Shown one piece after another: positions 14,279 through 55,739 of a DNA stretch of 55,739 bases. The notes beneath the pieces are model-generated. The model was not told the origin of the DNA. It saw nothing but the letters and a program-made list of their open reading frames with translations, and did no database searches. The stretch is from the sequence record ON470595. The stretch is one strand, 5' to 3'. Positions within the stretch are counted from its first letter, which is position 1, and each line of letters opens with the position of its first letter. The translations under genes and the position numbers were made by a program. The stretch is from Escherichia phage vB_EcoS-683R6.

Positions 14279-14329
14279 TATTTCAGTTCTCTGGTACTAA
14301 ATGGGGCAAATTGGGGGCAAACTTTGCAA

Positions 14330-15565
14330 CTACGATAACCGCGCATTCAACATGGCTACCTGTTCGTCGTTCATGTCATCAATCCACATACCGTAAATTT
14401 CATACACCATCTGCGCAGTTTCATGCCCCATCTGGCTGGCTATAAACGCCGGGTTCGCTCCTGCCGTCAACAGCCAGCAGGCAAAAGTATGCCGCGTATG
14501 GTACGGATTACGGCGGCGAATACCAGCACGTTTTACTGCTGCATTCCATCTCGCACCCAAACTGCTTACCGAGTAATAAGGTTTCTGTTTTCCGTTACAC
14601 ACTCTGGGCATGAAAACAAAATGCAGTTTTTGCTTTTCGGTTCTGCCGTACTCCCGATGATAAAAAGTGATTTCGCTTTTGCGATGATGCCCGGTCAGTT
14701 TGTATTGCTCCTTCAGTGCTTCAAGAGCAGGCTGCAGTAGTGTTACTGTCCGGATCCCGGCATTTGTTTTTGGGGGACCGAACATATCAAGTATCGTCAG
14801 GTTTCTTCTGACATTCACTATTCCCTTTTCGAGATCCACATCCTCCCACGCCAGAGCTGCCAGTTCCCCGTGACGAAGTCCTGAGTAAACGGCAAATTTC
14901 CACAAGTTCTGGCTCTGTCCTTTTTCACTTTCCATTAATGCATTGAATTCTGTTTTAGATAACGGATCAGGCTTTATTCTGTTTCGCTGTAATTTTTTTA
15001 CTCCTTCAAATGGTTTGGTTGATATAAATCCCGACTGATACGCAAAACGCAACAGCGAACAGAGCAGGGCGATATAGTTATCAACTGTGCGCACGGTTCT
15101 TCCTTTTTTGTTGGATCTTGGATTATCCAGGTAAAGCGTTTCTCCATGCAGCAGTTCATTCCGGTAGATTAAGATATCGCTATAACGAATATGTGATATC
15201 GGGGTACTTTCACAAATTATTATTCTGAGTGTTTTTAATTGTGATTTCGTTTTCTTCATTGTGTTTGTTGTTAACTCTGTCTCTTTAATTTTTGTCCAGA
15301 TATCACAAAGTTCTCCGAACGTTTTTATGACTCTCGTTGTCACCATTTTTGCCCCAGTGCTGGACTGGGGAAAACGTCTTAAATACTCAAATTCACCGGA
15401 GTTTATTTCATGAACTATCAGCGATCTTAAATTTCCGGCCTTTTTAATATTACTGTTTGTAATCTCCCAGCCTTTTAATGTTTCCCGACATCGTTTTCCT
15501 CGAAACATGAACCAGATGCGAATGTATCTACCTCTAATCTCGACACCTGTTGGTAATTTAGACAT
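14330..15565 (-). CDS. intR: tyrosine-type site-specific integrase (Rac IntR-like)
   Basis: 411-aa ORF; C-terminal tyrosine-recombinase catalytic region (..HTRHTFACWLLTAGANPAFIASQMGHETAQMVYEIYG); adjacent to ttcA. Confidence 0.9.
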   Translation of the reverse strand: MSKLPTGVEIRGRYIRIWFMFRGKRCRETLKGWEITNSNIKKAGNLRSLIVHEINSGEFEYLRRFPQSSTGAKMVTTRVIKTFGELCDIWTKIKETELTTNTMKKTKSQLKTLRIIICESTPISHIRYSDILIYRNELLHGETLYLDNPRSNKKGRTVRTVDNYIALLCSLLRFAYQSGFISTKPFEGVKKLQRNRIKPDPLSKTEFNALMESEKGQSQNLWKFAVYSGLRHGELAALAWEDVDLEKGIVNVRRNLTILDMFGPPKTNAGIRTVTLLQPALEALKEQYKLTGHHRKSEITFYHREYGRTEKQKLHFVFMPRVCNGKQKPYYSVSSLGARWNAAVKRAGIRRRNPYHTRHTFACWLLTAGANPAFIASQMGHETAQMVYEIYGMWIDDMNDEQVAMLNARLS

Positions 15566-15566
15566 A

Positions 15567-15782
15567 TCATGAGTCTTTGATAAACTGATTTATCTTTGGA
15601 TAGTTGTACCAGATAATCCCTCGCTTACTGTCTGGCTTCCCTAAAGGAGATACTCGTTTGAAGTGGAAGCCTTCCACCCAACAGTTCTGGCGGTATGCTT
15701 CAATTTGTCTGGCCCCCAGACCAGTGCGAAGCATCAGGCCGTATTCAACCATCCACTCTTCATTAAAGATTACTTGTGCCAT
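15567..15782 (-). CDS. xisR: excisionase-like protein (YdaQ/XisR-like)
   Basis: [44 protein letters not shown]...; immediately upstream of int; an upstream in-frame start at 15806 is also possible. Confidence 0.75.
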
Positions 15783-15881
15783 CGCATCACCTCTGGCAGG
15801 CGCCAATGTTAGACTGAAATTGACGCCCGATGTTGATTATTAATAATCAGCTATGAAGTTTTAATTTGAATACAATGCAAT

Positions 15882-16142
15882 TCACGAGGACTGAAGTCTC
15901 TCGCAATTAAAATTTATCAGTTTTACTTTCTGCTCTCTGGAAACGGCTGCTTCTTTTTTACCTGAGAGCATTTTTTCGCATTCTGATTTCGTTAGTTTAG
16001 ATTTTGAATATCTTGTCCAGTTAGTAGGAGTGCCACCTTCCTTTTCAATAGTGGCGGTAATTTTATACATGAACACCTCCATTATTATTTCCAGTGGTTC
16101 GTTTATTCCATCTTTCGAGTGCTTCTTTTTCACTTCCACCAT
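15882..16142 (-). CDS. ydaC: Rac prophage protein YdaC-like (DUF1187)
   Basis: 86-aa ORF containing ..MYKITATIEKEGGTPTNWTRYSKSKLTKSECEKMLSGKKEAAVSREQKVKLINF; true start probably internal. Confidence 0.55.
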   Translation of the reverse strand: MVEVKKKHSKDGINEPLEIIMEVFMYKITATIEKEGGTPTNWTRYSKSKLTKSECEKMLSGKKEAAVSREQKVKLINFNCERLQSS

Positions 16143-16257
16143 AACCGGTTCGGGATTCGCATCCGTTACACTTCGCTCGGTAATATCCTGAAATGGCTTT
16201 CACCGTTACTGATGGACAACCACAAAATGGACATGGTTTAACATTGTCATATCTCAT
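16063..16257 (-). CDS. ralR: restriction alleviation protein RalR (Lar)
   Basis: MRYDNVKPCPFCGCPSVTVKAISGYYRAKCNGCESRTGYGGSEKEALERWNKRTTG; Cys4 zinc-ribbon; overlaps ydaC in another frame. Confidence 0.8.
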   Translation of the reverse strand: MRYDNVKPCPFCGCPSVTVKAISGYYRAKCNGCESRTGYGGSEKEALERWNKRTTGNNNGGVHV

Positions 16258-19882: not shown

Positions 19883-20158
19883 TCAGATTTCACCTTTTAA
19901 TTTCATTGCAATTAGAGTTGCCAGAAATTCGGCTTTTTTTTCTGCGGGCAGATTCTTTCCGGTATGCACCAGGCACATTTTTTTGACACCTTCGTGAAGT
20001 GTTTTAACGTTGCCTGATGGACCGTCGATATCAACCACAGTGAATGGGGTTTCTTTATTTTCTGTTTTAATCACGTAGCCAATACGCTTTCCTTCCAGAT
20101 TAACCTCGTGAACAATGTCATCAGTAGTTACAACAGTGGCTTCATAACTGGTAATCAT
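19883..20158 (-). CDS. racC: Rac prophage protein RacC
   Basis: MITSYEATVVTTDDIVHEVNLEGKRIGYVIKTENKETPFTVVDIDGPSG... (91 aa from internal Met; frame open to 20206). Confidence 0.8.
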   Translation of the reverse strand: MITSYEATVVTTDDIVHEVNLEGKRIGYVIKTENKETPFTVVDIDGPSGNVKTLHEGVKKMCLVHTGKNLPAEKKAEFLATLIAMKLKGEI

Positions 20159-20232
20159 GTTTTTCTCCTTAATTAAGGTTGAGCGAATCCCTGCCATTGC
20201 TGGCATAAATTCAGTTTCGCATAGTCAGTTAA

Positions 20233-20403
20233 TTAAAGTTCGTGTGCCATCTGGTCTTTTTCGGCACAACTTTCACTACAATATTTTTTCATTTCCGTCG
20301 TTTGGATAACTCCACGCATGAAATGAAGTGGTCTTTTGATACTTTTGCTTTCTTCAATTTCTTTATTGCAAAGGTGGTAAGCACATTTTATTTTCTTAGT
20401 CAT
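20233..20403 (-). CDS. ydaE: small Cys-rich protein YdaE
   Basis: Hand translation of reverse strand: M(VM)TKKIKCAYHLCNKEIEESKSIKRPLHFMRGVIQTTEMKKYCSESCAEKDQMAHEL; about 56 aa, below the ORF-track cutoff; start overlaps the kilR stop. Confidence 0.6.
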   Translation of the reverse strand: MTKKIKCAYHLCNKEIEESKSIKRPLHFMRGVIQTTEMKKYCSESCAEKDQMAHEL

Positions 20404-20624
20404 CACCATGACTCCGCCTTTACAGGTAAACCATTACGACCGAGGAAGACTTTAATCATGCAGTCAGTAATGCATGTTTTTGTGGTCAGGTTACGAATAT
20501 AAAGTTTTCGCTTTTTAATATTGTTTGCCGAGGCAATATATGTCCGGCCTTCATGAAGAACATAGTCACCAGGAGTCACACACTGACGTGGTATTTCATC
20601 AGTTCCGAAGTGATGTGCAATCAT
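20403..20624 (-). CDS. kilR: killing protein KilR (FtsZ inhibitor)
   Basis: [73 protein letters not shown] matches remembered KilR (73 aa). Confidence 0.85.
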
Positions 20625-20804
20625 AATTATCTCCATTTTTACAAATGAACTTTGTTGATGCGGTGCCTGGTGCCTCCAGGTGACTGCAACCAGTTAACAA
20701 TTACAGTCGGCTTTCCCACCCAAACCAATAAGGACTAACATGACTTTTAACTGTGCCGCGTGCGCTTAGCCGCATTCACCGCATCACAAAATTCACTTTA
20801 AAAA

Positions 20805-20850
20805 GGGCGGGCATCAGTCGAACTTCAAGAAAAAACTGATGCCGCCAAGA
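20805..20850 (-). terminator. hairpin (GGCGGCATCAGT...ACTGATGCCCGCC) followed by CTTTTT on the reverse strand; possible leftward-operon terminator (tL-like)
   Basis: 12-bp near-perfect inverted repeat with 15-nt loop and downstream U-tract on the minus strand, between ydaF and kilR. Confidence 0.35.
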
Positions 20851-21044
20851 CTACACATAGCAGTGTTGTTATCCACAACCGGAGGCGCACTCCCACCATT
20901 TAAATTTAACAGACAAGACCGACTCTTTATGGATATCGGAAATGCGCCTTCGTGTTGTGCCCGGTTTTATTTCACCACCTCCGGGCTTTGGTGGTTTCTG
21001 CTATACCCCTACAGCGAGAATATTGAATTAATCCAAATAATGGA

Positions 21045-21197
21045 TTAGCAAGTATTTCTGGCAAGCCAGCGACGTGCGCCTGTTTCTGTTTTAAATGTTT
21101 TGCTTTTGGTATACGTCATAGCAGTGAACGTTCCATCTTGGTTAGGGAACACGCCGCACACCATGGATTCGTTATTGCCGAGGTCGATTTTTTGCAT
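21045..21197 (-). CDS. ydaF: small protein YdaF
   Basis: Hand translation: MQKIDLGNNESMVCGVFPNQDGTFTAMTYTKSKTFKTETGARRWLARNTC (50 aa), below the ORF-track cutoff. Confidence 0.6.
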   Translation of the reverse strand: MQKIDLGNNESMVCGVFPNQDGTFTAMTYTKSKTFKTETGARRWLARNTC

Positions 21198-21207
21198 TTT
21201 TCGCACC

Positions 21208-21342
21208 TCACATCTTGTTGTTGCGGATAGAGGCTTCTGCTTGCCAGAGATCCCAGTCGTTGCTACGTAAAGCCTGCACAGCCTGGCTGTAAGTGATACC
21301 GCAACAATCCATCAAATACTGAACTACTTCGTAATGCACCAT
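21208..21342 (-). CDS. ydaG: small protein YdaG
   Basis: Hand translation: MVHYEVVQYLMDCCGITYSQAVQALRSNDWDLWQAEASIRNNKM (44 aa). Confidence 0.55.
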   Translation of the reverse strand: MVHYEVVQYLMDCCGITYSQAVQALRSNDWDLWQAEASIRNNKM

Positions 21343-23004: not shown

Positions 23005-23862
23005 ATGCTGTTTGTGCTTATTCTAAGCCACCGGGCAGCATCATACGGGGCAATTATGGCCGCATTACCATACATGCAACTGTACATAGCTGATTACCTG
23101 GCTGACACCATGCATTTGTCAGCAGAGGAGCATGGTGCGTATTTGTTGCTGATGTTCAATTACTGGCAAACAGGAAAGCCAATACCTAAAAACAGGCTGG
23201 CAAAAATTGCCCGTCTGACTAACGAGCGATGGGCTGATGTTGAACCATCCTTGCAGGAGTTTTTTTGCGATAACGGCGAGGAATGGGTGCATCTTCGGAT
23301 TGCGGAAGATCTGGCATCAGTCAGGGAAAAATTAACCAAAAAATCAGCCGCAGGAAAAGCATCTGTTCAGGCCAGAAGAAGCAGAAAGGAAGCAGATGTT
23401 CAAACAAAACAAGAGAGAAATTTAACAGGTGTTCAAACAGATGTTGAAGTGGTGTTTGAACATGATGTCAACACAAAGGCAACTAATAAAGATACAGATA
23501 AAGATCTAAAAACAGATCCCCCCCTAAATCCCCCCCGGGGGAATCGAGGTGTCAAAAAGTTTGACCCTCTGGATATTGCTTTGCCGAACTGGATTTCTGT
23601 CTCGCTTTGGCGTGAGTGGGTTGAATTTCGCCAGGCATTGCGAAAACCGATTCGAACGGAGCAGGGCGCTAACGGGGCGATACGGGAGCTGGAAAAATTC
23701 CGCCAGCAGGGTTTTTCACCTGAGCAGGTGATTAGACACAGCATCGCCAATGAATACCAGGGCTTGTTCGCGCCGAAAGGTGTTCGACCTGAGACGTTAC
23801 TCCGACAGGTTAACACCGTCTCGTTACCGGATAGTGCGATCCCGCCAGGCTTCAGGGGGTAA
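23005..23862 (+). CDS. ydaU: replication initiation protein, O-like (YdaU)
   Basis: 285-aa ORF at the lambda O position, followed by a DnaC-like loader gene. Confidence 0.75.
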   Translation: MLFVLILSHRAASYGAIMAALPYMQLYIADYLADTMHLSAEEHGAYLLLMFNYWQTGKPIPKNRLAKIARLTNERWADVEPSLQEFFCDNGEEWVHLRIAEDLASVREKLTKKSAAGKASVQARRSRKEADVQTKQERNLTGVQTDVEVVFEHDVNTKATNKDTDKDLKTDPPLNPPRGNRGVKKFDPLDIALPNWISVSLWREWVEFRQALRKPIRTEQGANGAIRELEKFRQQGFSPEQVIRHSIANEYQGLFAPKGVRPETLLRQVNTVSLPDSAIPPGFRG

Positions 23863-23868
23863 CTGTCC

Positions 23869-24615
23869 ATGAAAAATATTGCGACAGGCGACGTTCTTGA
23901 ACGTATCCGCAGACTGGCCCCGTCACATGTAACCGCGCCATTCAAGACGGTAGCGGAGTGGCGCGAGTGGCAACTTTCCGAAGGCCAGAAACGTTGTGAG
24001 GAGATCAACCGTCAGAATCGTCAGTTGCGGGTGGAAAAAATTCTGAATCGCTCTGGCATCCAGCCATTGCACCGCAAATGCTCGTTTTCGAATTACCAGG
24101 TGCAGAACGAAGCGCAGCGATACGCGTTGAGTCAGGCGAAATCCATCGCTGATGAACTGATGACCGGGTGTACAAATTTTGCGTTCAGCGGAAAACCTGG
24201 TACCGGGAAGAACCACTTAGCGGCAGCTATCGGGAATCGCCTGCTGAAAGACGGTCAGACAGTGATTGTGGTTACCGTGGCTGATGTTATGAGTGCCCTG
24301 CACGCCAGCTATGACGATGGGCAGTCAGGCGAAAAATTTTTGCGGGAACTGTGCGAAGTGGATCTGCTGGTTCTTGATGAAATTGGCATTCAGCGCGAGA
24401 CAAAAAACGAGCAGGTGGTGCTGCACCAGATTGTTGATCGCCGGACAGCGTCGATGCGCAGCGTGGGGATGCTGACAAACCTGAACTATGAGGCCATGAA
24501 AACATTGCTCGGCGAGCGGATTATGGATCGCATGACCATGAACGGCGGACGCTGGGTGAATTTTAACTGGGAGAGCTGGCGTCCGAATGTCGTCCAGCCA
24601 GGAATTGCGAAGTGA
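23869..24615 (+). CDS. ydaV: DnaC/IstB-like AAA+ helicase loader (YdaV)
   Basis: 248-aa ORF; Walker [10 protein letters not shown], Walker B LLVLDEIG. Confidence 0.85.
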
Positions 24616-24637
24616 TTTTTACCGGGAGGAAATTTTA

Positions 24638-25423
24638 ATGGAGACTGTTTTTGACGCACTGAAAGCAATGGGAAAAGCCACGTCGGTAGAACTGGCTGCG
24701 CGACTTGATATCAGTCGTGAAGAGGTACTGAACNNNNNNNNNNNNNNNNNNNNNNNNNAGCTGTGGGAGCTGAAAAAGGCTGGTTTCGTTGATAAAAGCG
24801 TATACACCTGGCGTGTGGCTGATAACAACGTTCAGCAGGAACAGCCAGAGCAGGCAGAACCGCCGGAAGAAACCACCACGGCAACAGTCGCGAAAATTTC
24901 GGAGTGCGATTTAACTGCGACGATTGAACAACGTGGACCACAAACGGCGGATGAGTTGGCTACATGGTTCGGTACCACATCACGCAAAGTGGCTTCAACG
25001 CTGGCAATGGCAATCAGCAAAGGTCGTCTGATTCGCGTTAATCAGAACGGTAAATTTCGTTACTGCATACCGGGCGATAATTTACCAGCAAAGCCGAAAG
25101 CTGCATCGGTAACGGAAACTGATTTTAAAGCCTTTCCTCAGCCAGCAGATGTTGCGTTACCAGTACAGGAAGCTGCAACACAGGAAGATATTAAAACAGA
25201 AACTGTGGCGGACATTGTGCAGTCGCTGCCATCGTTTACTGAAACGCGAGCTGATGACCTGATTTTGCCATCGCTGCATATGGCAAACCGCGAACTGCGT
25301 CGGGCGAAAAATCATGTCCAGAAGTGGGAGCGAGTCTGCGCCGCGCTGCGGGAGCTGAACAAGCACCGGGATATTGTTCGACAGATTGCTGATTCTTCCC
25401 GCCGTGTTGTATCGGAAAAGTGA
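24638..25423 (+). CDS. ydaW: YdaW-like prophage protein (contains a 25-nt N run at 24734-24758)
   Basis: ORF with GGAGG RBS upstream of ATG 24638; N-terminal winged-helix-like region; reading frame appears preserved across the Ns. Confidence 0.6.
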
Positions 25424-25438
25424 TTGCCGGAGGCGCTT

Positions 25439-25870
25439 ATGGCAAAAGTATTTACACAAGAAGAGCGGGAAAAAATTAAAGGGCAGGTTGTTGAGCTAGT
25501 ACGCCGGAGTGGACGCGAGACGTTACGACAACTGGAGGCCAAGACAGGTGCGACAAGATATCTGATGAGCGTTCTCGCCAGAGAGCTGGTTGCCAGTGGC
25601 GATGTATACAACTCTGGTTACGGGTTATTCCCGTCTGAACAGGCTCGTAAGGACTGGCAAAATGCCCGCAAAAAACTATCCAGGGCAAAGGTGAAGAAAC
25701 CATCTGTGGTTGATCCGGACCTTATCTGGTCATTACCAGACGGAGAAATACGCCGCTACGACAGGCGTCTGAACATAATCTGTCGCGAGTGCCGGAAGAG
25801 TGAAGTTATGCAGCGTGTGCTGGCGTTTTATCAGAATGGTTTTCGAGAGAGGCTTGGAGATCAGGGATGA
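25439..25870 (+). CDS. hypothetical prophage protein (basic, about 143 aa)
   Basis: ORF with GGAGG RBS 7 nt upstream of ATG 25439; no recognisable motif. Confidence 0.5.
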   Translation: MAKVFTQEEREKIKGQVVELVRRSGRETLRQLEAKTGATRYLMSVLARELVASGDVYNSGYGLFPSEQARKDWQNARKKLSRAKVKKPSVVDPDLIWSLPDGEIRRYDRRLNIICRECRKSEVMQRVLAFYQNGFRERLGDQG

Positions 25871-39770: not shown

Positions 39771-39772
39771 TT

Positions 39773-42275: not shown

Positions 42276-42294
42276 ATAAATCATTTATTACAAC

Positions 42295-42320
42295 AGGCTA
42301 CCTTCGGGTGGCCTTTTTTA
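42295..42320 (+). terminator. UUCG-tetraloop hairpin plus T6 between head-morphogenesis and scaffold genes
   Basis: AGGCTACC-TTCG-GGTGGCCT followed by TTTTTT. Confidence 0.5.
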
Positions 42321-42379
42321 TTGCTGCGATCCGGATGGTGAGCAGCGTAACTGTCGGAAGACTTAAACCAGGTACTAAT

Positions 42380-43144: not shown

Positions 43145-43242
43145 CACATTTGTCAGCTTCCGGATGGGAGCTGGTGTCAGGGCTGGATAGCTCATTACTC
43201 CATCTATTCACAATTACGCAAATTTTTAAGGAATATTTAATT

Positions 43243-44382
43243 ATGGCTGGAAATACCCTGACCGGGTTGATCCCGACTATTTATACCGCCCTGGATGTTG
43301 TATCCCGTGAGCAGGTAGGTTTTATCCCTGCGGTAGCAAAAAACGCAAAAGCTGACGCCGCAGCAAAAGATCAGACGGTAACCGCGCCAGTTGCGCCTGA
43401 GGCGAAAACCGAAGATATCGTACCGGGGCCGTCAGCTCCGAATACCGGTGATCAAAATATTGGCACTGTTGATGTAAAAATTACTAAATCCAAAATGGCA
43501 CCGGTTAAATGGAATGGTGAAGAACAACTGGCTCTTGGTCCTTCAGGGACTTACAACACCATTCTGGCTGATCAGTTCAAGCAGGCTTTTCGCGCCCTTG
43601 CAAACGAGGTTGAGGCTGATCTTGGTGCGTTGTATTTCGGTGCTTCCCGCGCCGTGGGAACCGCAGGGACAACGCCGTTTGGTGTTAAAGATGATCTTTC
43701 TGATGCTGCTCTGGCTCGTCAGGTTCTGGAGGATAACGGCGCACCGACAACCGATCTGCAGATGGTGCTTGGCTCCACTGCCATTGCTAATTTGCGCGGA
43801 AAACAGTCTGTATTGTTTAAAGTGAATGAATCCGGCACTGAACAGCTACTGCGTGAGGGCGTGTTGGGGCGTCTGGAGGGATTCAATATTCACAGTTCGG
43901 CAGGTGTGAAACGAGCGCCAAAGGTTGCTGCAACTGGTTATCTCGTGAATGGAGAGAAAAAAGAAGGCGATGTTCTTATTTCCATTGATACTGGTTCGGG
44001 GAGTATTTCTGCAGGTCAGATTGTTACGTTCGCTGGTGATCCGAATCAGTATGTTGTGGCAGCAGCGACCAGCAATCTGATTACTCTTGCAGCGCCCGGA
44101 CTGCGTCAGGATCTGGCCGATGATACTGCCATCACAGTTGTTGGGGCCTTTACTGCAAATATGGCGTTTGATCGCAACGCGTTTCTGCTGGCATCCCGTA
44201 CTCCGGCAATGCCGGAAGGTGGCGATAATGCTGATGATGTAATGAATGTTACGGACCCGATTTCAGGGATTACGTTCCAGATTGCACTGTATCGTCAGTA
44301 TCGCCAGGTGCGCTATGAAGTTGGACTGGCATGGGGTGTTTCATCAGTGAAGCCGGCACATGGTTGTCTGATTCTTGGTTAA
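43243..44382 (+). CDS. major capsid protein
   Basis: About 379 aa from ATG 43243 (AAGGA RBS); followed by a strong hairpin terminator, typical of major capsid genes. Confidence 0.7.
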   Translation: MAGNTLTGLIPTIYTALDVVSREQVGFIPAVAKNAKADAAAKDQTVTAPVAPEAKTEDIVPGPSAPNTGDQNIGTVDVKITKSKMAPVKWNGEEQLALGPSGTYNTILADQFKQAFRALANEVEADLGALYFGASRAVGTAGTTPFGVKDDLSDAALARQVLEDNGAPTTDLQMVLGSTAIANLRGKQSVLFKVNESGTEQLLREGVLGRLEGFNIHSSAGVKRAPKVAATGYLVNGEKKEGDVLISIDTGSGSISAGQIVTFAGDPNQYVVAAATSNLITLAAPGLRQDLADDTAITVVGAFTANMAFDRNAFLLASRTPAMPEGGDNADDVMNVTDPISGITFQIALYRQYRQVRYEVGLAWGVSSVKPAHGCLILG

Positions 44383-44423: not shown

Positions 44424-44600
44424 TATGGCCGGATTAACTAAAGAGCAAAGAGCACAGCGTGAAGCCGCACAAAAAACGCAAATTGAGTTAGTGGTTATGG
44501 TGACCGATTATCAGATGTTTCCCGGCGCACCAACTATCGCTAATGTTCATCCTGATGAAGTTGACAACTGGAAGGCTATGGGCTGGAAAACTCAGGAGTA
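44424..44600 (+). CDS. small phage protein (58 aa)
   Basis: Hand translation: MAGLTKEQRAQREAAQKTQIELVVMVTDYQMFPGAPTIANVHPDEVDNWKAMGWKTQE; fills the gap between the capsid gene and the next ORF. Confidence 0.4.
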
Positions 44601-44604
44601 ACAC

Positions 44605-45000
44605 ATGATCACTTACGTGACCTGTGATGACGTTGATAATGCGTTTGGGAACGCCTGGACGAGTGAGAACGCTAAAAATAAAGCTGTTTTAATGGCTAAT
44701 GCCTGGCTTAATGGCTTCAACCTGAAAATTAACCCATCCCGTATTCCGGAAGAGGTAAAACTTGCGGGAGCATATGCAGCCAGAATTGCCTCATTTGGTA
44801 AGTTGTTTCAGCAGAAAAATGATTCTGGCGTTGTTATCAGTAAAGCCGTGTCGGCTGACGGGGTCAGTGTATCGAAATCATTTTCTGAGTTGCCAGCAAA
44901 CAGCACTGCATTGCTTGAACCCGATTTACAGCTTGCGATAGCACTGCTGAAACCGTACGGACTTAGTCGCTCACAAGTCAGGGTTGTGAGGGGGGGATAA
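44605..45000 (+). CDS. head-tail connector / head completion protein
   Basis: 131-aa ORF in the head-tail joining block; abutting neighbours. Confidence 0.5.
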   Translation: MITYVTCDDVDNAFGNAWTSENAKNKAVLMANAWLNGFNLKINPSRIPEEVKLAGAYAARIASFGKLFQQKNDSGVVISKAVSADGVSVSKSFSELPANSTALLEPDLQLAIALLKPYGLSRSQVRVVRGG

Positions 45001-45383
45001 TGGGGCTTCGTGAAGAGATTCAGTCAGAGGTTGCCGCTGCTTTTGATGAGGATTTAGCGGACGCCGTGAGTGATTTTTCTGGTTATTACGTTACGCACCG
45101 GCACTGGGATCCTGTGACGGAAACTGGCGGCGAATCCACCGCAATCTATACCGGGCGAGGCGTGTTGACACGTTATAAGCTGGGCAGAATTGATGGGATT
45201 AATATTTTGCATGGTGACCTTAAATTAACCGCTCTGGTATGCGAGGTTACGGATAAACCAGCTGTCGACCATATTATTGAGATTTATGATCCTGTATCAA
45301 GGCAGTTACAACGATACGAGGTAATTACAGCAAGTTTAGATCCTTCCGCATCAGTTTACTCTATCCAGTTAAGGAGAGCGTAA
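45000..45383 (+). CDS. head-tail adaptor protein
   Basis: 127-aa ORF, ATGA-type overlap with upstream gene. Confidence 0.5.
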   Translation: MGLREEIQSEVAAAFDEDLADAVSDFSGYYVTHRHWDPVTETGGESTAIYTGRGVLTRYKLGRIDGINILHGDLKLTALVCEVTDKPAVDHIIEIYDPVSRQLQRYEVITASLDPSASVYSIQLRRA

Positions 45384-45764
45384 ATGGCAAAGGCATGGGA
45401 TATAGAACCGTCAATATTTGCCGGGATGATTGAGGAAGATGTAGGGCTGAAGATTCGCTACATCGCTATGCAGATTCTTACTGCTATTGATATTGCTGCT
45501 CCGGTTGATACCGGACGTTTCAGAAATAACAACCTGGTGTCGTTACAGCATCCCGATTTTGGTATATCTGATAACGTGGATCCGAACGGTACGATTGCTG
45601 TTCAGCGTGGGATCGGGGTTATTTCGAAAGCTGCAAATTACGGGGTTATTTATATCCAGAATAACCTTCCTTATGCAGAGGCTCTTGAAAACGGTCATTC
45701 ACAACAAGCGCCAACTGGCGTGTATGCCAACGCTTTTTATGGTGTTTTACAGGCTTACAAATGA
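45384..45764 (+). CDS. tail component (head-tail joining block)
   Basis: 126-aa ORF, tightly packed. Confidence 0.5.
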   Translation: MAKAWDIEPSIFAGMIEEDVGLKIRYIAMQILTAIDIAAPVDTGRFRNNNLVSLQHPDFGISDNVDPNGTIAVQRGIGVISKAANYGVIYIQNNLPYAEALENGHSQQAPTGVYANAFYGVLQAYK

Positions 45765-46153
45765 AGTTTACTGAAATCAGAAATACGGTTATTTCCAGAA
45801 TGACGGCACAGACGATTATTGATGGAAAAGACGTATTGTATCCGAACGGGCCAACGTTCGATCCTTCCGGTAAGTTAATCTGGGCGCGGTTAAGTAATAT
45901 TCCCGGGCAGGCTGGGGTTAATGAAATTGGCGCGGGGCCGGTTGTTTATCGCACGGGGATAATCATTATTCAGTTATTTGTCCCCGCAGGTTCTGGTTCA
46001 AAACTCATTACTGAGACAGCCGATAAATTGCGGGAACTGTTTGAGTTTCAGGATGACGATCGTCTCAGTTACCAGGCTGTTTCCTCAATAGCCGTCGGCG
46101 AAAAGAATGGCTGGTTCCAGCTTAATCTTCAAATTCCATATCGCGCGCTCTAG
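45761..46153 (+). CDS. tail completion / tail terminator protein
   Basis: 130-aa ORF directly before the major tail gene. Confidence 0.5.
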   Translation: MKFTEIRNTVISRMTAQTIIDGKDVLYPNGPTFDPSGKLIWARLSNIPGQAGVNEIGAGPVVYRTGIIIIQLFVPAGSGSKLITETADKLRELFEFQDDDRLSYQAVSSIAVGEKNGWFQLNLQIPYRAL

Positions 46154-46179
46154 CGCAATTAATGACATAGGAGGCTTCT

Positions 46180-47142
46180 GTGAGTTCAGGTGCAAAGGTT
46201 ATCTCGGCATTTATCCGGGAGACAGTTGCAGGCACTACGCCAGCAAGTGGTGACTGGAGTTTATTAAAACGCACAAGCTGGGGAGTAAAACCCACCCAGA
46301 ATAAAGGCGAAAATAATGAGATTGGTGGCTCCCGGATGGCTCAGGGGGCGACGCCTGGCACTGTGGATGTCGGCGGTGATGTTGGTACCAAATTTCGCTG
46401 GGGTCAACATGATGATTTTCTTGCATCCTGTTTCGGCGCGGAATGGTCAGGCGATTCTCTGACAATGGGGAATGAGCGAATAACATTTTCTCTGGCGACC
46501 TATGCGTCCGATGTCGGAATTGCCTCTGTCGTCAGAGGAGCGCAGGTTGGCTCATGGAAAATGCAGATCCCTAACGACGGCGATATTACAGCGACCGTAA
46601 CCTTTGCCGGGCTGGGCTGGGAAACAAAGGCCGATGATACGAATTTTATCAAAGGCAAACCTGTGGATAGTGCAGGAAAGTTACGCTATTCGTTTAAGGA
46701 GGTTTCAGCAGTAAGCCTGAATGGTGTTGCCGGAGGTAACGGTTTTTGTATCGACAGTTTTGATATTCAGTTCGATAACAAACTCCAGACACAGCGTTGT
46801 ATCGGGACTGGCTCGCCTTATGCAGGAGCAAATATTCCGACTACTTTTACACCGTCCGGTACGGTGACGCTTTCATGGTCTAAAGCCGCGTGGGAAATCT
46901 GGAGTAAAACACTGACTGGAGAAACAGTTCCGTTCAGCTTCACGCTTTCGAATGGAGAGGGGGCATACACTTTCAGTTTCCCGAAGGTTCAGGTGTCAGG
47001 TGAATGGCCTGATGGGGGTAATACTGACATTATCCAGGTTCAATTGAGCATTACCGCAGCAGATGAAGCACCTACGATAACCAGAAAAAAATGCTCCCCG
47101 ACTGCCGTGATCGCAAAAGCCAGTGCTGATGCGATTAGTTGA
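46180..47142 (+). CDS. major tail tube protein
   Basis: 320-aa ORF (GTG start) preceding the G/GT chaperone pair and tape measure gene. Confidence 0.65.
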   Translation: MSSGAKVISAFIRETVAGTTPASGDWSLLKRTSWGVKPTQNKGENNEIGGSRMAQGATPGTVDVGGDVGTKFRWGQHDDFLASCFGAEWSGDSLTMGNERITFSLATYASDVGIASVVRGAQVGSWKMQIPNDGDITATVTFAGLGWETKADDTNFIKGKPVDSAGKLRYSFKEVSAVSLNGVAGGNGFCIDSFDIQFDNKLQTQRCIGTGSPYAGANIPTTFTPSGTVTLSWSKAAWEIWSKTLTGETVPFSFTLSNGEGAYTFSFPKVQVSGEWPDGGNTDIIQVQLSITAADEAPTITRKKCSPTAVIAKASADAIS

Positions 47143-47190: not shown

Positions 47191-47652
47191 ATGAGGTTAT
47201 GGATGTTTATTCTTAATCAGAAAATTATCATCGGTGGAGAACGCTGGTTTACGCCAATGAAGGACTTAAAACCTGTAGACGGGTTAAAACTGTTGGTGGC
47301 AAGCAGCGATAACGATCAGTATCGCTCCCGTAATGCATTAATCCGTCGTCACATTGAGAAAATGGATGCCAGTTTGCACGTCGGAACGAAGGAGTTTGAT
47401 ATTTCAAAGGTTTCCGAGGTAGATTCTGTTGATGATTTACTCATTGATAATGCTGCTCGTTATCTGCTGAAAGACTGGAAAGGGGTTGGTGAACTGGTTA
47501 ATGGTGCTGAGGTTGCACTGGAATATACGCCAGAACGAGGGATCGCGCTGCTTAAGCAGAATCCAGAGTTGTACTGGCAGATCCTTGCAGAAGCAGCCAG
47601 CATCGCCCAGGGTAAAGAGCAGCAGAAGCAGGATACGATAAAAAAGCCATAG
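47191..47652 (+). CDS. tail assembly chaperone, gpG-like
   Basis: 153-aa ORF ending just after an A_AAA_AAG slippery heptamer; position between major tail and tape measure genes. Confidence 0.7.
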   Translation: MRLWMFILNQKIIIGGERWFTPMKDLKPVDGLKLLVASSDNDQYRSRNALIRRHIEKMDASLHVGTKEFDISKVSEVDSVDDLLIDNAARYLLKDWKGVGELVNGAEVALEYTPERGIALLKQNPELYWQILAEAASIAQGKEQQKQDTIKKP

Positions 47653-47960
47653 CCGCCCAGCGGTGGTTATCGGAGTTCGGGGGAGAAAGGGGGGAAAAGG
47701 CAAGATGGAAGCGAGAAAAACTCAGGTTGCCACCGATACCGGAACCAGAAATAGACCCGGTGCTTAAGGAATTGTTGTACGCCTATTCGGTAATATCCCG
47801 TGCCCGACGTTATGCTGGAATGACCGGGGTGCCTTTGCCTTTATCTCTGACAGAGATAAATGAATATTTAGCCACTCATCCGGTATTGATTGAGCGCGAT
47901 GAGTTTGAAGCAGTGATCTTTGCACTGGATGACCAGTATTTTCAGGATCAGTGTGTGTAG
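47640..47960 (+). CDS. -1 frame extension producing a gpGT-like fusion chaperone (programmed frameshift at 47640-47646)
   Basis: The -1 frame is open from the heptamer through the 47727-47960 ORF with no stop (KKAIAAQRWLSEFGGERGEKARWKREKLRLPPIPEPE...). Confidence 0.6.
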   Translation, partial: KKAIAAQRWLSEFGGERGEKARWKREKLRLPPIPEPEIDPVLKELLYAYSVISRARRYAGMTGVPLPLSLTEINEYLATHPVLIERDEFEAVIFALDDQYFQDQCV

Positions 47961-48123: not shown

Positions 48124-51100
48124 ATGGCAGAGCAAACCTCGCGTCTCGCAATAATTATTGATAGCACTGGAGCAAAAAATAATGCTGACAATCTGACCTC
48201 CTCATTAGTCAAAATGACGCAGGCCGGGGAAACTGCTGCAAATAGCGCAGGGAAAGTGACTAAGGCAACAGAAGATGAGAAGAACGCGCTCGCAAAATTA
48301 AAAGTAGCTATTGATCCAGTTGGTGCCGCAATTGATACTGTCGGTCGACGCTATTCTGAATTAAAGAAATTTTTCGATAAAGGGCTTATTGATAAAGAAG
48401 AATATGAATTTCTTGTCCGTAAACTTAATGAAACCACAGAGGAATTGAGCGGGGTTGCGCAAGCGCAGAGAGAAGCCGAGAAGGCCGGAAAACTTGCTGC
48501 CGCCCAGCAGGAAGCGCAGGCTCAGGCCTTTCAAAGAATGCTGGACAAGATCGACCCTCTGGCTGCGGCGCTAAGAAATCTTGAACAACAGCAGGATGAA
48601 CTTAATGCTGCGTTTGCATCCGGGAAAATAAATGGTTCTCAGTTTGAGAATTATAGCCGAAAAATACAGGAAACACGGCGAGAGCTTACCGGAGAGGCTC
48701 AGGCAGAGCGAGAAGCAGCAAAAGCGCATGATGAACAGGTTGCTGCTTTGCAACGTCTGATTGCTCAACTTGACCCTGTCGGAACTGCTTTTAATCGTCT
48801 GGTAGAACAACAGAAACAGCTCAATGAAGCAAAAGCTAAGGGGATGCTCTCTCCTGAAATGTATGAGGAACTTTCTGGAAAACTTCGTGCTATGCGGAGT
48901 GAGCTTGAGGTTACTCAATCTCAATTAAGCAAAACCGGAATGTCGGCAAAACAAACGGCTTTTGCTATGCGCATGTTGCCTGCACAAATGACGGATATTG
49001 TTGTTGGGTTGTCCACTGGTCAGTCGCCTTTTATGGTGTTAATGCAGCAGGGCGGCCAGCTAAAAGATATGTTCGGTGGGATTGGCCCGGCGATCAAAGG
49101 TGTTGGTTCTTATGTGCTGGGATTAATTAATCCTTTTACCCTGGCCGCAGCAGCCGTTGGCGTCTTAGGGCTGGCTTACTATAAAGGCTCTCAGGAGCAG
49201 GACGAATTTAATAAATCTCTTATTCTTACCGGAAATCAGTTGGGGACAACCAGCGGGCAATTGGCCGATATAGCTCAACGTGCCGGGAATGCGGCTGATT
49301 CGACAACTGGCGCTGCGGCGGCAGTATTAAACCAGCTTGTGCGTTCGGGAAAGGTAGCGAGCAGTTCGCTGGAGCAAGTGACGACAGCGATAGTAAAAAC
49401 GAGCGAAGTAACAGGAATATCAACCGAACAACTGGTTAATGACTTCAATGAAATTGCAAAGGATCCTGTCAGTGCCATATCAAAACTTAATGATCAGTAC
49501 CATTTTCTGACAATTGCGACTTATAACCAGATTAAGGCGCTACAGGATGAAGGGAACCAGCAGGAGGCCGCCCGCATTGCGACAGAAGCATACTCATCCT
49601 CAATGATCCAGCGCACCAACCAGATTAAAGAAAATCTTGGTTATCTTGAGACTGCATGGAAAGCTGTCGCAGACTCCGCAAAATGGGCATGGGATTCCAT
49701 GCTGGACATTGGCCGTGAGGCCTCCCTTGATCAAAAAATCTCAGATGTTCTCCGTCAAATTGATGAAATAGAAAAAAATACCCGACCCGGAGTTTTCGGG
49801 TTAGGTGGCATTGGAGATGGCGGAGCTCAAAATAAAAGGCTGGCACGATTAAAGCAGCAATTGGGCGTACTTCAAGCAGAAAAAATTGCTCAGGACGTCC
49901 TAAATTCATCAATAAACGATTACAACAAGCGACAACAGGAAGGAATTGAACTCAGACAGAGAGCAGATGCCTTTTCAAAACAATATCAGACCCGGGAGCA
50001 GCAGAGAGCTAGTGAACTTGCAAAACTGGAAAAGCTAAAGAGTCAGTATTCAAAGGAAGAATATAATAATTTTATCGCTCAAATAAATGAGCGTTATAAA
50101 GATCCAAAGCAACCAAAGGCGAAAGGTTATTCGGATGATGCTGCCCAACGAATGATTGATCATCTGAATCAACAGAATGCGTTACTAAGTTCACAAACTG
50201 AATTAACCGTTAAATTAAGTTCCTCTGAACAGGAACTGGTTAAGTGGCGTCAGCAGATTGCCGACCTGGAGTCACGACCGTCATCGAAATTAACCCAGGA
50301 TCAGAAATCGCTTCTCTTACACCGGGAAGAAATAACCGCGTTGATGGAGAAAAATGTTGCGATTGAAAAAAATAACAGGCTAATCAAGGAATCCGCCGAA
50401 ATAGCTGCATGGCGTGATTTATTGCAGGCTTCGATTGATAATCGTCAACAGGGGTATGATATTCAGATTGCTGGTTATGGGGTTGGCGATAAAAATCAGC
50501 AACGCCAGCAGGAATTACTGCGGATTGAACGTGAATATAACAATCAGCGTCTGCAACTTGAACGTGACTATGCAGATAAATCCCGTGGGATGTCAAATCA
50601 TGTTTTTCAGGAGAAAATGTAGGCTCTGAATGATGCTCTGGAACGAGAAAAAGAAATTGTCAGACAGAAAAACGAGCAGCTCGATATTCAGGCAGGAGAC
50701 TGGGTTAGTGGTGCCTCCCAGGGATTCAATAACTGGCTGGATGACACTAAGGATATCAGTGAGCAGATAAAATCAACCACGACTCAGATGTTTGATGGAA
50801 TGACCGATGCGCTGGGTGATTTTGTCACGACAGGCAAGGCAAATTTTCGTTCTTTCGCTACTTCCGTGATTTCGGATCTTAGTCGAATAGCATTAAAGGC
50901 TTCAATTACTGGGATTTTCGACAGCATTAGTAACAGTTCTTCGGGGGGGATTTTAGGAACTATCGGGAGTGCTATTAGTAAATTTATTCCGAATGCAAAG
51001 GGCGGTGTTTATGAGTCTCCGTCATTGAACACGTATTCGAACGGTATTTATGATTCCCCGCAATTTTTTGCTTTTGCAAAAGGGGCTGGTGTTTTTGGTG

Positions 51101-51357
51101 AGGCTGGTCCGGAAGCCATTATGCCATTAACACGAACATCCGATGGTTCTCTTGGTGTCAGAGCTATTAATAGTAAAAGTGGTAATGGAGGCGGAGATAT
51201 TACCTATGCCCCTGTATACCAAATCACTATTCAAAATGACGGCCAGAATGGAGAGATTGGCCCTCAGGCAATAAAAGCACTTATGGGGATGGTTGATCAG
51301 CGGGTGCAGGGCAATCTGTTAAATATGCGACGTGATGGGGGAATGTTAAGTGGCTAA
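48124..51357 (+). CDS. H: tail tape measure protein (lambda gpH-like) interrupted by a single in-frame TAG at 50620-50622
   Basis: 832-aa ORF and downstream 189-aa ORF are in the same frame with no other stop; coiled-coil-rich N-terminus; C-terminal region ..[27 protein letters not shown].. Confidence 0.8.
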
Positions 51358-52391: not shown

Positions 52392-53086
52392 ATGACAGAG
52401 ACAGAATCAGCGATTCTGGCGCACGCCCGGCGATGTGCGCCAGCGGAGTCGTGCGGCTTCGTGGTGAGAACGTCGGAAGGGGAAAGATATTTTCCCTGCG
52501 TGAATATCTCCGGTGAGCCGGAGGAGTATTTCCGGATGTCGCCGGAGGACTGGCTGCGGGCAGAGATGCAGGGTGAGATTGTGGCGCTGGTCCACAGCCA
52601 CCCCGGTGGTATGCCCTGGCTGAGTGAGACCGACCGGCGGCTGCAGGTGCAGAGTGATTTGCCGTGGTGGCTGGTTTGCCGGGGAGCGATTCACAAGTTC
52701 CGCTGTGTGCCACATCTTTCCGGGCGGCGCTTTGAGCACGGGGTGACGGACTGTTACACGCTGTTCCGGGATGCTTACCATCTGGCGGGNNNNNNNNNNN
52801 NNNNNNNNNNNNNNNNNNNNNNNNNNNNNNNNNNNNNNNNNNNNNNGCGGCGCAGCCGGGCGATGTGCTGCTGTGCTGTTTTGGTTCATCGGTGCCGAAT
52901 CATGCCGCCATTTACTGTGGTGACAGCGAGCTGCTGCACCATATTCCTGAACAACTGAGTAAACGAGAGAGGTACACCGACAAATGGCAGCGACGCACAC
53001 ACTCCCTCTGGCGTCACCGGGCATGGCACGCATCTGCCTTTACGGGGATTTACAACGATTTGGCCGCCGCATCGACCTTCGAGTGA
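52392..53086 (+). CDS. K: tail assembly protein K (lambda gpK-like, JAMM/NlpC-P60 type); contains a 57-nt N run at 52790-52846
   Basis: N-terminal part MTETESAILAHARRCAPAESCGFVVRT.. with HSHPGG motif; C-terminal part in the 52865-53086 ORF; frame shifts across the Ns. Confidence 0.8.
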
Positions 53087-53631
53087 AAACGGGGTCCGAA
53101 GCCATCCGGGCGCTGGCCATGCAGATCCCGGCGTTTCGTCAGAAACTGAGCGACGGCTGGTATCAGGTACGCATTGCCGGGCGTGATGCAGGTGAAACTG
53201 AATTATCAGCCCGTCTTAATGAACCGCTGGCAAATGGTGCCGTGATCCACATTGTGCCGCGTCTGGCGGGAGCCAAAAGTGGCGGTCTTTTTCAGGCTGT
53301 GCTGGGGGCGGCGCTGATTGCGGTGGCATGGTGGAACCCTGCAGGTTGGTTGGGGGCTGCCGCAATTACAGGAATGTATGGTGCGGGGGCCAGTATGGTG
53401 CTCGGTGGTGTGGCGCAGATGCTGGCACCGAAAGCCAGAACTCCCCGTACACAGACAACGGATAACGGCAAACAGAACACCTATTTCTCCTCACTGGATA
53501 ACATGGTTGCCCAGGGCAATGTTCTGCCGGTTCTGTACGGTGAAATGCGCGTGGGGTCACGGGTGATTTCGCAGGAGATCAGCACGGCAGATGAAGGAGA
53601 TGGTGGTCAGGTTGTGGTGATTGGTCGTTGA
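52984..53631 (+). CDS. I: tail assembly protein I (lambda gpI-like)
   Basis: MAATHTLPLASPGMARICLYGDLQRFGRRIDLRVKTG.. matches remembered lambda I; overlaps the K 3' end. Confidence 0.85.
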   Translation: MAATHTLPLASPGMARICLYGDLQRFGRRIDLRVKTGSEAIRALAMQIPAFRQKLSDGWYQVRIAGRDAGETELSARLNEPLANGAVIHIVPRLAGAKSGGLFQAVLGAALIAVAWWNPAGWLGAAAITGMYGAGASMVLGGVAQMLAPKARTPRTQTTDNGKQNTYFSSLDNMVAQGNVLPVLYGEMRVGSRVISQEISTADEGDGGQVVVIGR

Positions 53632-53691
53632 TGCAGAATGTTTTGTGTGAAACCGCCTCAGGGCGGTTTTGTCGTTTCTGGAGCGTGAGGA

Positions 53692-55739
53692 ATGGGTAAA
53701 GGCAGNNNNNNNNNNTCCCGCGCGAAGCGAAGGACAACCTGAAATCATCCCAGATGCTGAGCGTGATAGACGCCATCAGTGAAGGGCCGATTGAAGGTCC
53801 GGTGGATGGATTAAAAAGCGTGCTGCTGAACAGTACGCCGGTGCTGGACAGTGAGGGGAATACCAATATCTCCGGCGTCACGGTGGTGTTCCGGGCAGGT
53901 GAGCAGGAGCAGTCACCGCCGGAGGGATTTGAATCCTCCGGTTCCGAGACGGTGCTGGGTACGGAAGTGAAATATGAAACGCCGATCACCCGGACCATCA
54001 CGTCGGCAAACATCGACCGTCTGCGCTTTACCTTCGGTGTACAGGCACTGGTGGAAACCACCTCAAAGGGAGACAGGAATCCGTCGGAAGTCCGCCTGCT
54101 GGTTCAGATACAGCGTAACGGTGGCTGGGTGACGGAAAAAGACATCACCATTAAAGGCAAAACCACCTCACAGTATCTGGCATCGGTGGTGGTGGGTAAC
54201 CTGCCGCCGCGCCCGTTTAATATCCGGATGCGCAGGATGACGCCGGACAGCACCACAGACCAGCTGCAGAACAAAACGCTCTGGTCGTCATACACCGAGA
54301 TCATCGATGTGAAACAGTGCTACCCGAACACGGCACTGGTCGGCGTACAGGTGGACTCGGAGCAGTTCGGCAGCCAGCAGGTGAGCCGTAATTATCATCT
54401 TCGCGGGCGCATTCTGCAGGTGCCGTCGAACTATAACCCGCAGACGCGACAATACAGCGGTATCTGGGACGGAACGTTAAAACCAGCATACAGCAACAAC
54501 ATGGCCTGGTGTCTGTGGGATATGCTGACCCACCCGCGCTACGGCATGGGGAAACGTCTTGGTGCGGCGGATGTGGACAAATGGGCGCTGTATGTCATCG
54601 GCCAGTACTGCGACCAGTCAGTGCCGGACGGCTTTGGCGGCACGGAGCCGCGCATCACCTGTAATGCGTACCTGACCACACAGCGCAAGGCGTGGGATGT
54701 GCTCAGTGATTTCTGCTCGGCGATGCGCTGTATGCCGGTATGGAACGGGCAGACGCTGACGTTCGTGCAGGACCGACCGTCGGATAAGGTGTGGACCTAT
54801 AACCGCAGTAATGTGGTGATGCCGGATGATGGCGCGCCGTTCCGCTACAGCTTCAGCGCCCTGAAGGACCGCCATAATGCCGTTGAGGTGAACTGGATTG
54901 ACCCGAACAACGGCTGGGAGACGGCGACAGAGCTTGTTGAAGATACGCAGGCCATTGCCCGTTACGGTCGTAATGTCACGAAGATGGATGCCTTTGGCTG
55001 TACCAGCCGGGGGCAGGCACACCGCGCCGGGCTGTGGCTGATTAAAACGGAACTGCTGGAAACGCAGACCGTGGATTTCAGCGTGGGCGCAGAAGGGCTT
55101 CGCCATGTGCCGGGCGATGTTATTGAAATCTGCGATGATGACTATGCCGGTATCAGCACCGGTGGTCGCGTGTTGGCGGTGAACAGCCAGACCCGGACGC
55201 TGACGCTCGACCGTGAAATCACGCTGCCATCCTCCGGTACCACGCTGATAAGCCTGGTTGACGGAAGTGGCAATCCGGTCAGCGTGGAGGTTCAGTCCGT
55301 CACCGACGGACTTAAGGTGAAAGTGAATCGGGTTCCTGACGGCGTTGCAGAATACAGTGTGTGGGGGCTGAAGTTGCCGACGTTGCGTCAGCGCCTGTTC
55401 CGCTGTGTGAGTATCCGTGAGAACGATGACGGCACGTATGCCATCACTGCCGTGCAGCATGTACCGGAAAAAGAAGCCATCGTGGATAACGGGGCGCACT
55501 TTGACGGCGACCAGAGCGGCACGGTGAATGGTGTCACGCCGCCAGCGGTGCAGCACCTGACCGCCGAAGTCACCGCAGACAGCGGGGAATACCAGGTGCT
55601 GGCGCGCTGGGATACGCCGAAGGTGGTGAAGGGCGTGAGCTTTATGCTTCGCCTGACCGTGGCAGCGGATGACGGCAGTGAGCGGCTGGTCAGCACGGCC
55701 CGGACGACGGAAACCACATACCGCTTCACGCAACTGGCG
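53692..55739 (+). CDS. J: host specificity / central tail fibre protein J (lambda gpJ-like), 5' part; contains a 10-nt N run at 53706-53715; runs off the window end
   Basis: Translation ..REAKDNLKSSQMLSVIDAISEGPIEGPVDGLKSVLLNSTPVLDSEGNTNISGVTVVFRAGEQEQ.. is near-identical to remembered lambda J. Confidence 0.9.

Follow-up and report, generated by a model that had tools for sequence, protein, structure and literature searches.

A Rac-family prophage at ttcA in sequence record ON470595: a probable undeleted counterpart of K-12 Rac with an amber codon in its tape-measure gene

The DNA analysed here (the window) is a stretch of 55,739 nucleotides from the sequence record ON470595 of Escherichia phage vB_EcoS-683R6. 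Positions 1-14278 hold Escherichia coli chromosomal host genes, running from the abgR side through zntB, FnrS and dbpA to ttcA, and positions 14229-55739 hold the left ~41.5 kb, or about 80%, of a prophage of ~51.9 kb that is inserted at the 5' end of ttcA. Its genes follow the lambdoid order of integrase and excisionase, recombination, immunity, replication, nin/Q, lysis, head and tail (Table 1). An initial annotation, made from the sequence alone, had described a Rac-type prophage far more complete than the Rac element of E. coli K-12, with an early region close to the Rac gene set, a nin/Q-like region, two tRNAs, a full lysis cassette, terminase, portal and capsid genes, and tail genes in the order G/GT, H, M, L, K, I, J. 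All of these were recovered in the present analysis, with the element lying at the Rac site and containing three stretches that are missing from K-12. The comparisons given below make it very probable that the element is a lambdoid siphovirus prophage of the Rac family, the undeleted form of K-12 Rac, which was recently inactivated by an amber codon in its tape-measure gene.

Table 1. Features of the prophage in the window, stretches absent from K-12 Rac, and runs of N
Feature	Position	Strand	Basis or remark
attL	14229..14271	.	43-nt imperfect repeat with attR; 26-nt identical core 14229-14254 (blastn-short)
intR tyrosine integrase	14330-15565	-	RefSeq annotation, identical protein, 98% nt to K-12
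xisR excisionase	15567-15782	-	RefSeq annotation, identical protein, 98% nt to K-12
DUF1187/rcbA-like gene and ralR toxin	15882..16257	-	annotation, identical proteins
RalA antitoxin sRNA	15886-16064	+	Rfam RF02694, 220 bits
recT	16314-17123	-	annotation, K-12 alignment
recE	17116-19781	-	annotation, K-12 alignment; N run 18166-18188
racC-like gene, ydaE, kilR, ydaF, ydaG	19883..21342	-	annotation, K-12 alignment
racR repressor	21651-22127	-	97% nt to K-12, annotation
ydaS	22251-22547	+	97% nt to K-12, annotation
ydaT	22570-22992	+	97% nt to K-12, annotation
ydaU (DUF1376), ydaV (DnaC/IstB-like ATPase), full-length DUF1627 gene (ydaW), DUF977 gene	23005..25870	+	annotation, Pfam; N run 24734-24758
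IetA/IetS (IteA/IteS) anti-phage ATPase and S8 protease pair, cargo in nin region	26064..29457	+	NCBIfam, PADLOC
NinB-like (DUF1367), DUF1364/YbcO-like nuclease, Q-like antiterminator	29871..31299	+	PHROGs phrog_319, phrog_131, phrog_753
Q-like antiterminator (DUF1133)	30757-31299	+	phrog_753, E 1e-80 to 1e-79
tRNA-Thr(TGT) and tRNA-Gly(TCC)	31653..31806	+	ARAGORN, Rfam
Lysis cassette (essD holin, rrrD endolysin, Rz, Rz1)	32581..33754	+	annotation, identical proteins
Rz with embedded Rz1	33290-33754; 33510-33695	+	Rz 93% to lambda Rz; 56/61 positions of Rz1 as in lambda Rz1
trkG potassium transporter, moron between lysis and packaging genes	33892..35349	+	99.7% nt to K-12 trkG, NCBIfam TrkH family
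Full-length ParB/Srx-domain protein, TAGT-family glycosyltransferase-like protein, 69-aa ORF	35487..37390	+	PHROGs, Pfam PF20691
Head module: terS, terL, portal, Mu-F-like head morphogenesis protein, scaffold, major capsid	37394..44382	+	PHROGs, Pfam
58-aa ORF, Ad1 adaptor, Hc1 head closure, tail completion/Neck1, tail terminator, tail tube	44425..47142	+	PHROGs; Pfam Phage_tube_2
Tail assembly chaperone G (ydaY in K-12)	47191-47652	+	frame analysis, phrog_313
GT product via -1 frameshift	47191..47960	+	slippery A AAA AAG 47640-47646, phrog_1189
Tape-measure gene (H)	48124..51357	+	1077 codons, amber at codon 833
M	51350-51688	+	BLASTP 42% to lambda
L	51688-52386	+	BLASTP 93.5% to lambda
K	52392-53086	+	BLASTP 96% to lambda; N run 52790-52846
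I	52984-53631	+	BLASTP 79% to lambda
J	starts 53692, leaves window at codon 684/1159	+	N run 53706-53715
K-12 deletion 1	25112-33309		8,198 bp; 3' ydaW/DUF1627, DUF977, IetAS, NinB-like, DUF1364, Q-like, tRNAs, holin, endolysin, start of Rz
K-12 deletion 2	35741-47300		11,560 bp; 3' part of ParB-domain gene ynaK through tail tube, start of ydaY
K-12 deletion 3			8,471 bp; tape-measure gene from ~codon 312 through M, L, K, I and J into lom
N runs	18166-18188; 24734-24758; 52790-52846; 53706-53715		in recE, the DUF1627 gene, K and J, respectively

A stretch of 21.7 kb from ttcA on, the early half of the prophage, has 99.9% identity to prophages of at least 15 complete E. coli genomes, and in 78 genomes it is covered to 80% or more. 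NZ_CP032145 (strain 15.TR.026_OXA; 99.9% identical) was used as an annotated stand-in, and outside the runs of N the window differs from it by 9+1+16 mismatches over 43.6 kb. Its RefSeq annotation names each module and marks the tape-measure gene as the sole pseudogene within the range of the window; with that gene aside, the called window proteins that do not cross a run of N are full length and identical to RefSeq proteins. The four runs, of 23, 25, 57 and 10 N, replace 9, 1, 106 and 14 nt of the 99.9%-identical reference, and as these lengths differ, the frames of recE, the DUF1627 gene, K and J are not checkable in the window; all four genes are open in near-identical genomes.

Integration at the Rac site is evident from the attachment repeat, as attL lies in the opening codons of ttcA (13343-14278, minus strand). 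When the repeat was searched with blastn-short against the right end of the element in NZ_CP032145 and against ttcC of K-12, the identical attR sequence was found in both at the ttcC fragment, the displaced 5' fragment of ttcA, adjoining uspF. The presence of the repeat at both ends (ttcA and ttcC) sets the size of the element at ~51.9 kb in the stand-in genome, with ~10.4 kb lying past the end of the window; attL is within the window and attR, which the initial annotation had placed beyond the window, was seen in near-identical genomes. The start assigned there, position 14279, has to be moved, as the real molecular left edge is the att core, ~25-50 bp further to the left. A 26-bp attP is annotated at the same place in Escherichia phage Rac-SA53 (KU052037). 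In the left flank, the ordinary chromosomal small RNA genes McaS (4497-4592) and FnrS (11459-11576) were noted.

The runs of N suggest a draft or masked source, and bacterial-type cargo (trkG, sitABCD and IetAS) is carried inside the element, both of which could be taken to mean that what was read as one prophage is a chimera of the assembly or a pair of elements lying side by side or one inside the other. The same continuous arrangement is found, however, in many closed genomes, only one attL/attR pair is present, at ttcA/ttcC, and neither the integrase nor any of the immunity, replication, lysis, head and tail modules occurs more than once. A tandem-prophage or chimeric origin was rejected on the strength of the closed genomes and the single att pair, and we regard it as scarcely credible.

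The relationship to K-12 Rac was examined with blastn of the window against NC_000913 1407000-1440000. K-12 Rac (NC_000913.3 1411899-1434958) aligns in five collinear blocks of 95.5-99.7% nucleotide identity in this comparison, which the initial annotation had suggested, and between them lie three internal gaps, which together with the collinearity identify K-12 Rac as a deletion derivative of the present architecture. Both elements have the same integration site, att repeat, immunity region (racR/ydaS/ydaT) and trkG. The first and second deletions, whose left edges are at 25111 and 35740, have clean junctions at which two to four bases are shared, and at the third junction K-12 has ~38 bp without alignment to the reference. 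K-12 Rac has in addition sieB and an IS5 in lomR, and its right arm consists of stfR-tfaR-pinR-ynaE, whereas the present lineage has fibre fragments and sitABCD at that place.

The remnants of the late region in K-12 (rzpR/rzoR, trkG, ynaK, ydaY and tmpR/ynaA) stand in the same order as here and are 98.5-99.7% identical at the nucleotide level within the window, and the lom gene of a near-identical genome is 90-94% identical to K-12 lomR. Going by these alignments, the K-12 genes ydaW, ynaK, ydaY and ynaA/tmpR are stumps of the DUF1627 protein, the ParB-domain protein, the chaperone G and the tape-measure protein, respectively. The collinearity and identity of the stumps and the clean gap junctions argue that the tail is ancestral to Rac and was not grafted onto it. 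This runs counter to the proposal of the initial annotation that the element is a mosaic, taken here to mean that a lambda-type tail module was recently joined by recombination to a Rac-type early region. Such an origin is favoured by the tail-tip genes, for L, K, I and residues 1-684 of J are 79-97% identical to their lambda counterparts in protein and ~92% in DNA, unlike their neighbours H and M, and by the unrelated late modules of other prophages with Rac-type early regions (Sp10 and Rac-SA53). For the module as a whole it is contradicted by K-12 Rac, in which G (ydaY), lom and the 5' third of H (tmpR/ynaA) are retained in the same order at 94-98.5% identity, and by the shaft and head, which have no sequence similarity to lambda; the exchange affected no more than the tail-tip patch and either predates the K-12 deletions or is common to the lineage. 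A recent recombinant origin is thus judged unlikely.

The comparison with lambda bears this out in detail, as the whole-prophage alignment that had been suggested found nucleotide similarity in Rz (93%) and L-K-I-J (~92%) and nowhere else. At the protein level, L (93.5%), K (96%), I (79%) and J (82.7% overall) are homologous to the lambda tail-tip proteins, and identity falls to 42% in M and 28% in H. J had been called near-identical to lambda J over its visible part, and residues 1-684, the part within the window, are indeed 97.4% identical; the C-terminal 475 residues beyond the window, which form the receptor-binding part, are 61.6% identical, and on this account the receptor specificity may differ from that of lambda. 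G, GT, the tail tube, the tail terminator and all head proteins gave no BLASTP match to lambda at E<=1e-3, so that neither a lambda-type head (homologues of Nu1/A, B, C, D and E) nor a lambda-type shaft (Z, U, V, G, T and H) was found by sequence, with the exception of the 28% in H; the shaft proteins are functional analogues by PHROGs alone. The term lambda-type tail is therefore apt for the organisation and the tip but for the shaft holds in gene order only. What is otherwise shared with lambda is the overall lambdoid gene order and the logic of the G/GT -1 frameshift, and no similarity was detected in the integrase, recombination, immunity, replication, Q, holin/endolysin, terminase, portal, capsid, connector, tube and G/T genes. 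Only the L-J and Rz patches (~92-93% nucleotide identity) appear to show past exchange with lambda.

Complete Rac-like phages are already known, namely KingRac, Sp10/CP-933R and Rac-SA53. KingRac is a complete Rac-related lambdoid prophage at ttcA, reported to yield tailed particles after mitomycin C and, in the mouse gut, to take the place of the defective Rac of K-12 (Frazao et al. 2019, PMC6731689); its reported size is 46,834 bp (PMC6731689) as compared with ~51.9 kb here, and the comparison is with its published description. Active Rac-like phages at ttcA include KingRac (PMC6731689) and the rac-like prophages of O157 (PMC4632033). Sp10/CP-933R of O157:H7 is likewise inserted in ttcA, shares the int-xis-recET-kilR left arm and has replication genes of the ydaU/V type (PMC4632033), but it differs in its repressor and cro, has tRNAs for Ile and Arg, lacks trkG, and has a head with a prohead protease and a tail tip that is only 72-79% identical at the nucleotide level. 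Rac-SA53 has the same ttcA core and a Rac-type early region that is 83-95% identical in patches, but it carries LT-IIa toxin genes and baseplate-type late genes, and apart from a patch of terS has no head or tail module in common with the present element. To judge from these alignments, it is the present lineage that carries the 'true' Rac late region, the late modules of Sp10 and Rac-SA53 being unrelated to it.

The 11.6-kb stretch from head to tail tube that is absent from K-12 is present at no less than 80% coverage in 706 of 5,426 complete E. coli genomes (13%), in most of them with an identity of at least 95%. The prophage family is a common one that has been described before, the element being a recently inactivated member of it, and there is accordingly little that is new in finding a complete Rac-like prophage at ttcA, as these are documented, KingRac is active, and the head/tail module occurs in ~13% of complete E. 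coli genomes. Its value is that of a reference: it gives, base by base, the origin of K-12 Rac from a ~50-kb phage via three internal deletions with short junction microhomologies, and the full-length forms of the K-12 'y-genes' ydaW, ynaK, ydaY and ynaA/tmpR. It is also a natural case of a prophage that is one nonsense codon from intact and that carries the IetAS defence pair, TrkG and, in near-identical genomes, SitABCD.

The amber codon alluded to in the initial annotation is real and lies at 50620-50622 (TAG), at codon 833 of the 1077 codons of the tape-measure gene. The relative ON470614 has CAG at this codon in a gene of otherwise the same length; for genomes that carry this same allele the prokaryotic annotation pipeline PGAP reports an 'internal stop', and it calls an intact tape-measure protein of 1077 residues in NZ_CP021207, which differs by one base. 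In a survey of the 5,426 complete genomes with a 91-nt probe centred on codon 833, matches were found in 712 genomes, of which 32 had the exact (amber) sequence and 355 differed by 1-4 bases. The restriction of the amber to 32 of the 712 genomes argues that the stop is lineage-specific, and it looks like a recent inactivation. A conserved recoding site was considered and rejected, as the exact 91-mer occurs in 32 of the 712 and the inspected relatives have CAG in an intact gene; the tRNAs of the prophage, with the anticodons TGT and TCC, were rejected as amber suppressors.

Amber mutants in H of lambda are non-viable without suppression, and natural E. coli isolates are generally sup0. By analogy, loss of the C-terminal 245 residues of the tape-measure protein should block tail assembly in a sup0 host, and the amber probably stops the production of infectious particles. 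The description of the prophage as largely complete is therefore correct in respect of gene content and has to be qualified on two counts, the amber and, beyond the window, the fragmentary locus for the side tail fibre. Of the called late genes the tape-measure gene is the only one that is not intact, and owing to it the set of essential late genes is not open throughout. The element could nevertheless be a fully functional, inducible phage if the host supplied a suppressor tRNA, if the stop was read through, or if an 832-residue tape-measure protein together with a downstream product sufficed. Every other called late gene is intact, a supE-type suppressor acting at a CAG to TAG site would restore the wild-type Gln, the amber allele persists in 32 complete genomes, and the related KingRac makes particles (PMC6731689). 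Such a phage would have to contend with the sup0 background of natural isolates, with prophage tRNAs that read Thr and Gly codons, with the lethality of unsuppressed H ambers in lambda, and with the fact that the 91 nt are mismatched at one or more positions in ~680 of the 712 carriers, two inspected relatives having CAG and an intact gene. We therefore think it improbable that the prophage is functional.

Inactivation of an undeleted Rac prophage remains the preferred reading, and a number of points weigh against it. RecE, the DUF1627 protein, K and J were verified only in near-identical genomes, owing to the runs of N. RacR has no Pfam match and no recognisable cleavage domain, which bears on the route of induction. 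A supE-type suppressor is possible in the host. An element of 51.9 kb that includes sitABCD may or may not fit the capsid. Finally, excision, induction and particle formation are all predictions.

A working scheme for the life cycle of such a prophage can be put together for which we infer lysogeny control, excision, replication, late transcription and head assembly from lambdoid biology. IntR would integrate the element into the 26-bp core at the 5' end of ttcA, and lysogeny would be held by RacR repressing the divergent ydaS/T operon. Upon derepression, expression of YdaS/T would be followed by Xis/Int-mediated excision at the ttcA core and by replication dependent on YdaU/YdaV. Antitermination by the Q-like protein would then allow transcripts that start downstream of its gene to pass the terminator-like hairpins at 31379-31410 and 32165-32184, giving one long late transcript through the tRNAs, lysis genes, trkG, and head and tail genes. 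Heads would assemble on the scaffold without a protease and be filled by a T4-type terminase, and the L-K-I-J tip would be the base on which tails are put together with the help of the G/GT chaperones, the step at which the amber should halt assembly. In a non-suppressing host, excision, replication, lysis and probably head filling would remain, but functional tails would not be made.

It is also conceivable that the amber did not arise by mere decay but was a selected 'grounding' step in a successful clone, by which the cargo (IetAS, TrkG, SitABCD, RalR and KilR) and the capacity for excision, lysis and head formation were kept and infectivity was lost. This might have left a domesticated, tail-less DNA-packaging or altruistic-lysis module, or a phage that is rescued by the tails of co-resident lambdoid prophages. 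We mention this scenario, and separately the marking of phage DNA by the ParB-TAGT pair, as speculation to which little probability can be given.

With regard to the early region, intR, xisR, ralR, recT, recE, racC, ydaE, kilR, ydaF/G, racR and ydaS/T/U/V are collinear with K-12 Rac at 95.5-98% nucleotide identity, which agrees with the initial annotation and makes up the Rac early gene set apart from the missing sieB. The place of sieB is taken by 47 bp, at 21019-21066, as compared with 555 bp in K-12; this superinfection exclusion gene, in a segment of ~0.5-0.6 kb, is present at that position in K-12 Rac, Sp10 and ON470614. A segment of recE of ~400 bp (19077-19484) does not align to recE of K-12, Sp10 or ON470614, and RecE is 883 residues long in the near-identical genome versus 866 in K-12. 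Divergent promoter-like sites flank the gap between racR and ydaS, at 22195-22224 (plus strand) and 21540-21512 (minus strand).

The IetA and IetS proteins in the nin region scored 526.6 bits (cut-off 510) and 1043.4 bits (cut-off 900) with the NCBIfam models and E values of 9e-143 and 8e-301 with PADLOC, and their genes are adjacent as expected of the pair; a literature search on IteA/IteS found nothing, and the identification comes from NCBIfam and PADLOC. The pair falls inside the 8.2 kb that are missing from K-12 Rac, and the GC content there goes down to ~0.39-0.40. In the lysis cassette, the EssD holin has 71 residues and the RrrD endolysin has a hydrophobic N-terminus; we take these putative proteins to resemble the pinholin/SAR-endolysin type of phage 21. 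The ParB/Srx and TAGT genes (35487-37203) lie directly upstream of the terminase genes. The TAGT protein belongs to the TET-associated-glycosyltransferase family by Pfam PF20691 (E 7.6e-35), and no TET/JBP partner is present; the pair may have a part in DNA modification or packaging and might, as a speculative function, glycosylate or otherwise mark phage DNA.

All proteins of the head module are full length and identical to RefSeq proteins. Their families (Terminase_6N/6C for TerL, DUF4055 for the portal, DUF6651 for the scaffold and the P22-coat family for the coat protein) make the head one of P22-coat/T4-terminase type, and PHROGs and Pfam found no protease gene in the module at 37394-44382. 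Upstream of the tape-measure gene, a G/GT pair with a -1 frameshift was recognised (phrog_313): the G frame ends in ATA AAA AAG CCA TAG, the slippery heptamer is in the correct phase, and the -1 frame is open to 47960. Between the GT stop and the start of the tape-measure gene, and thus within the late operon, a hairpin with a T-run (cccacttcggtgggcttttt) was noted at 48075-48110, in a block that is common to K-12 Rac (98.5% nucleotide identity).

Beyond the window, the right arm in NZ_CP032145 holds the remainder of J and then lom, the side-fibre locus in fragments, sitDCBA and attR. An N-terminal fragment of stf and a C-terminal fragment of tfa are flagged there as pseudogenes, the side-tail-fibre locus being fragmentary in the nearest complete genomes, and the right arm of NZ_CP032145 (L002 2848-11095) also has alternative fibre-domain genes. 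The iron/manganese transporter operon sitABCD is cargo just inside attR in this genome.

Several GenBank 'phage' records, vB_EcoS-606R9, vB_EcoS-666R9 and others, are up to 100% identical to the element and partial (20-38 kb). They were set aside as proof of particle production and taken as in-silico prophage calls, given that they are partial and that the only paper found to mention them concerns phages located in the genomes of clinical isolates. Two further phage records (ON032529, PP818812) carry related DNA: over the late half as a whole, 'Salmonella phage SPF_0923' shows 98.2% identity, and 'Actinobacillus phage vB_Apl-pPE4' has Rac early genes at 92%. The host labels Salmonella and Actinobacillus look odd for E. 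coli Rac-type DNA.

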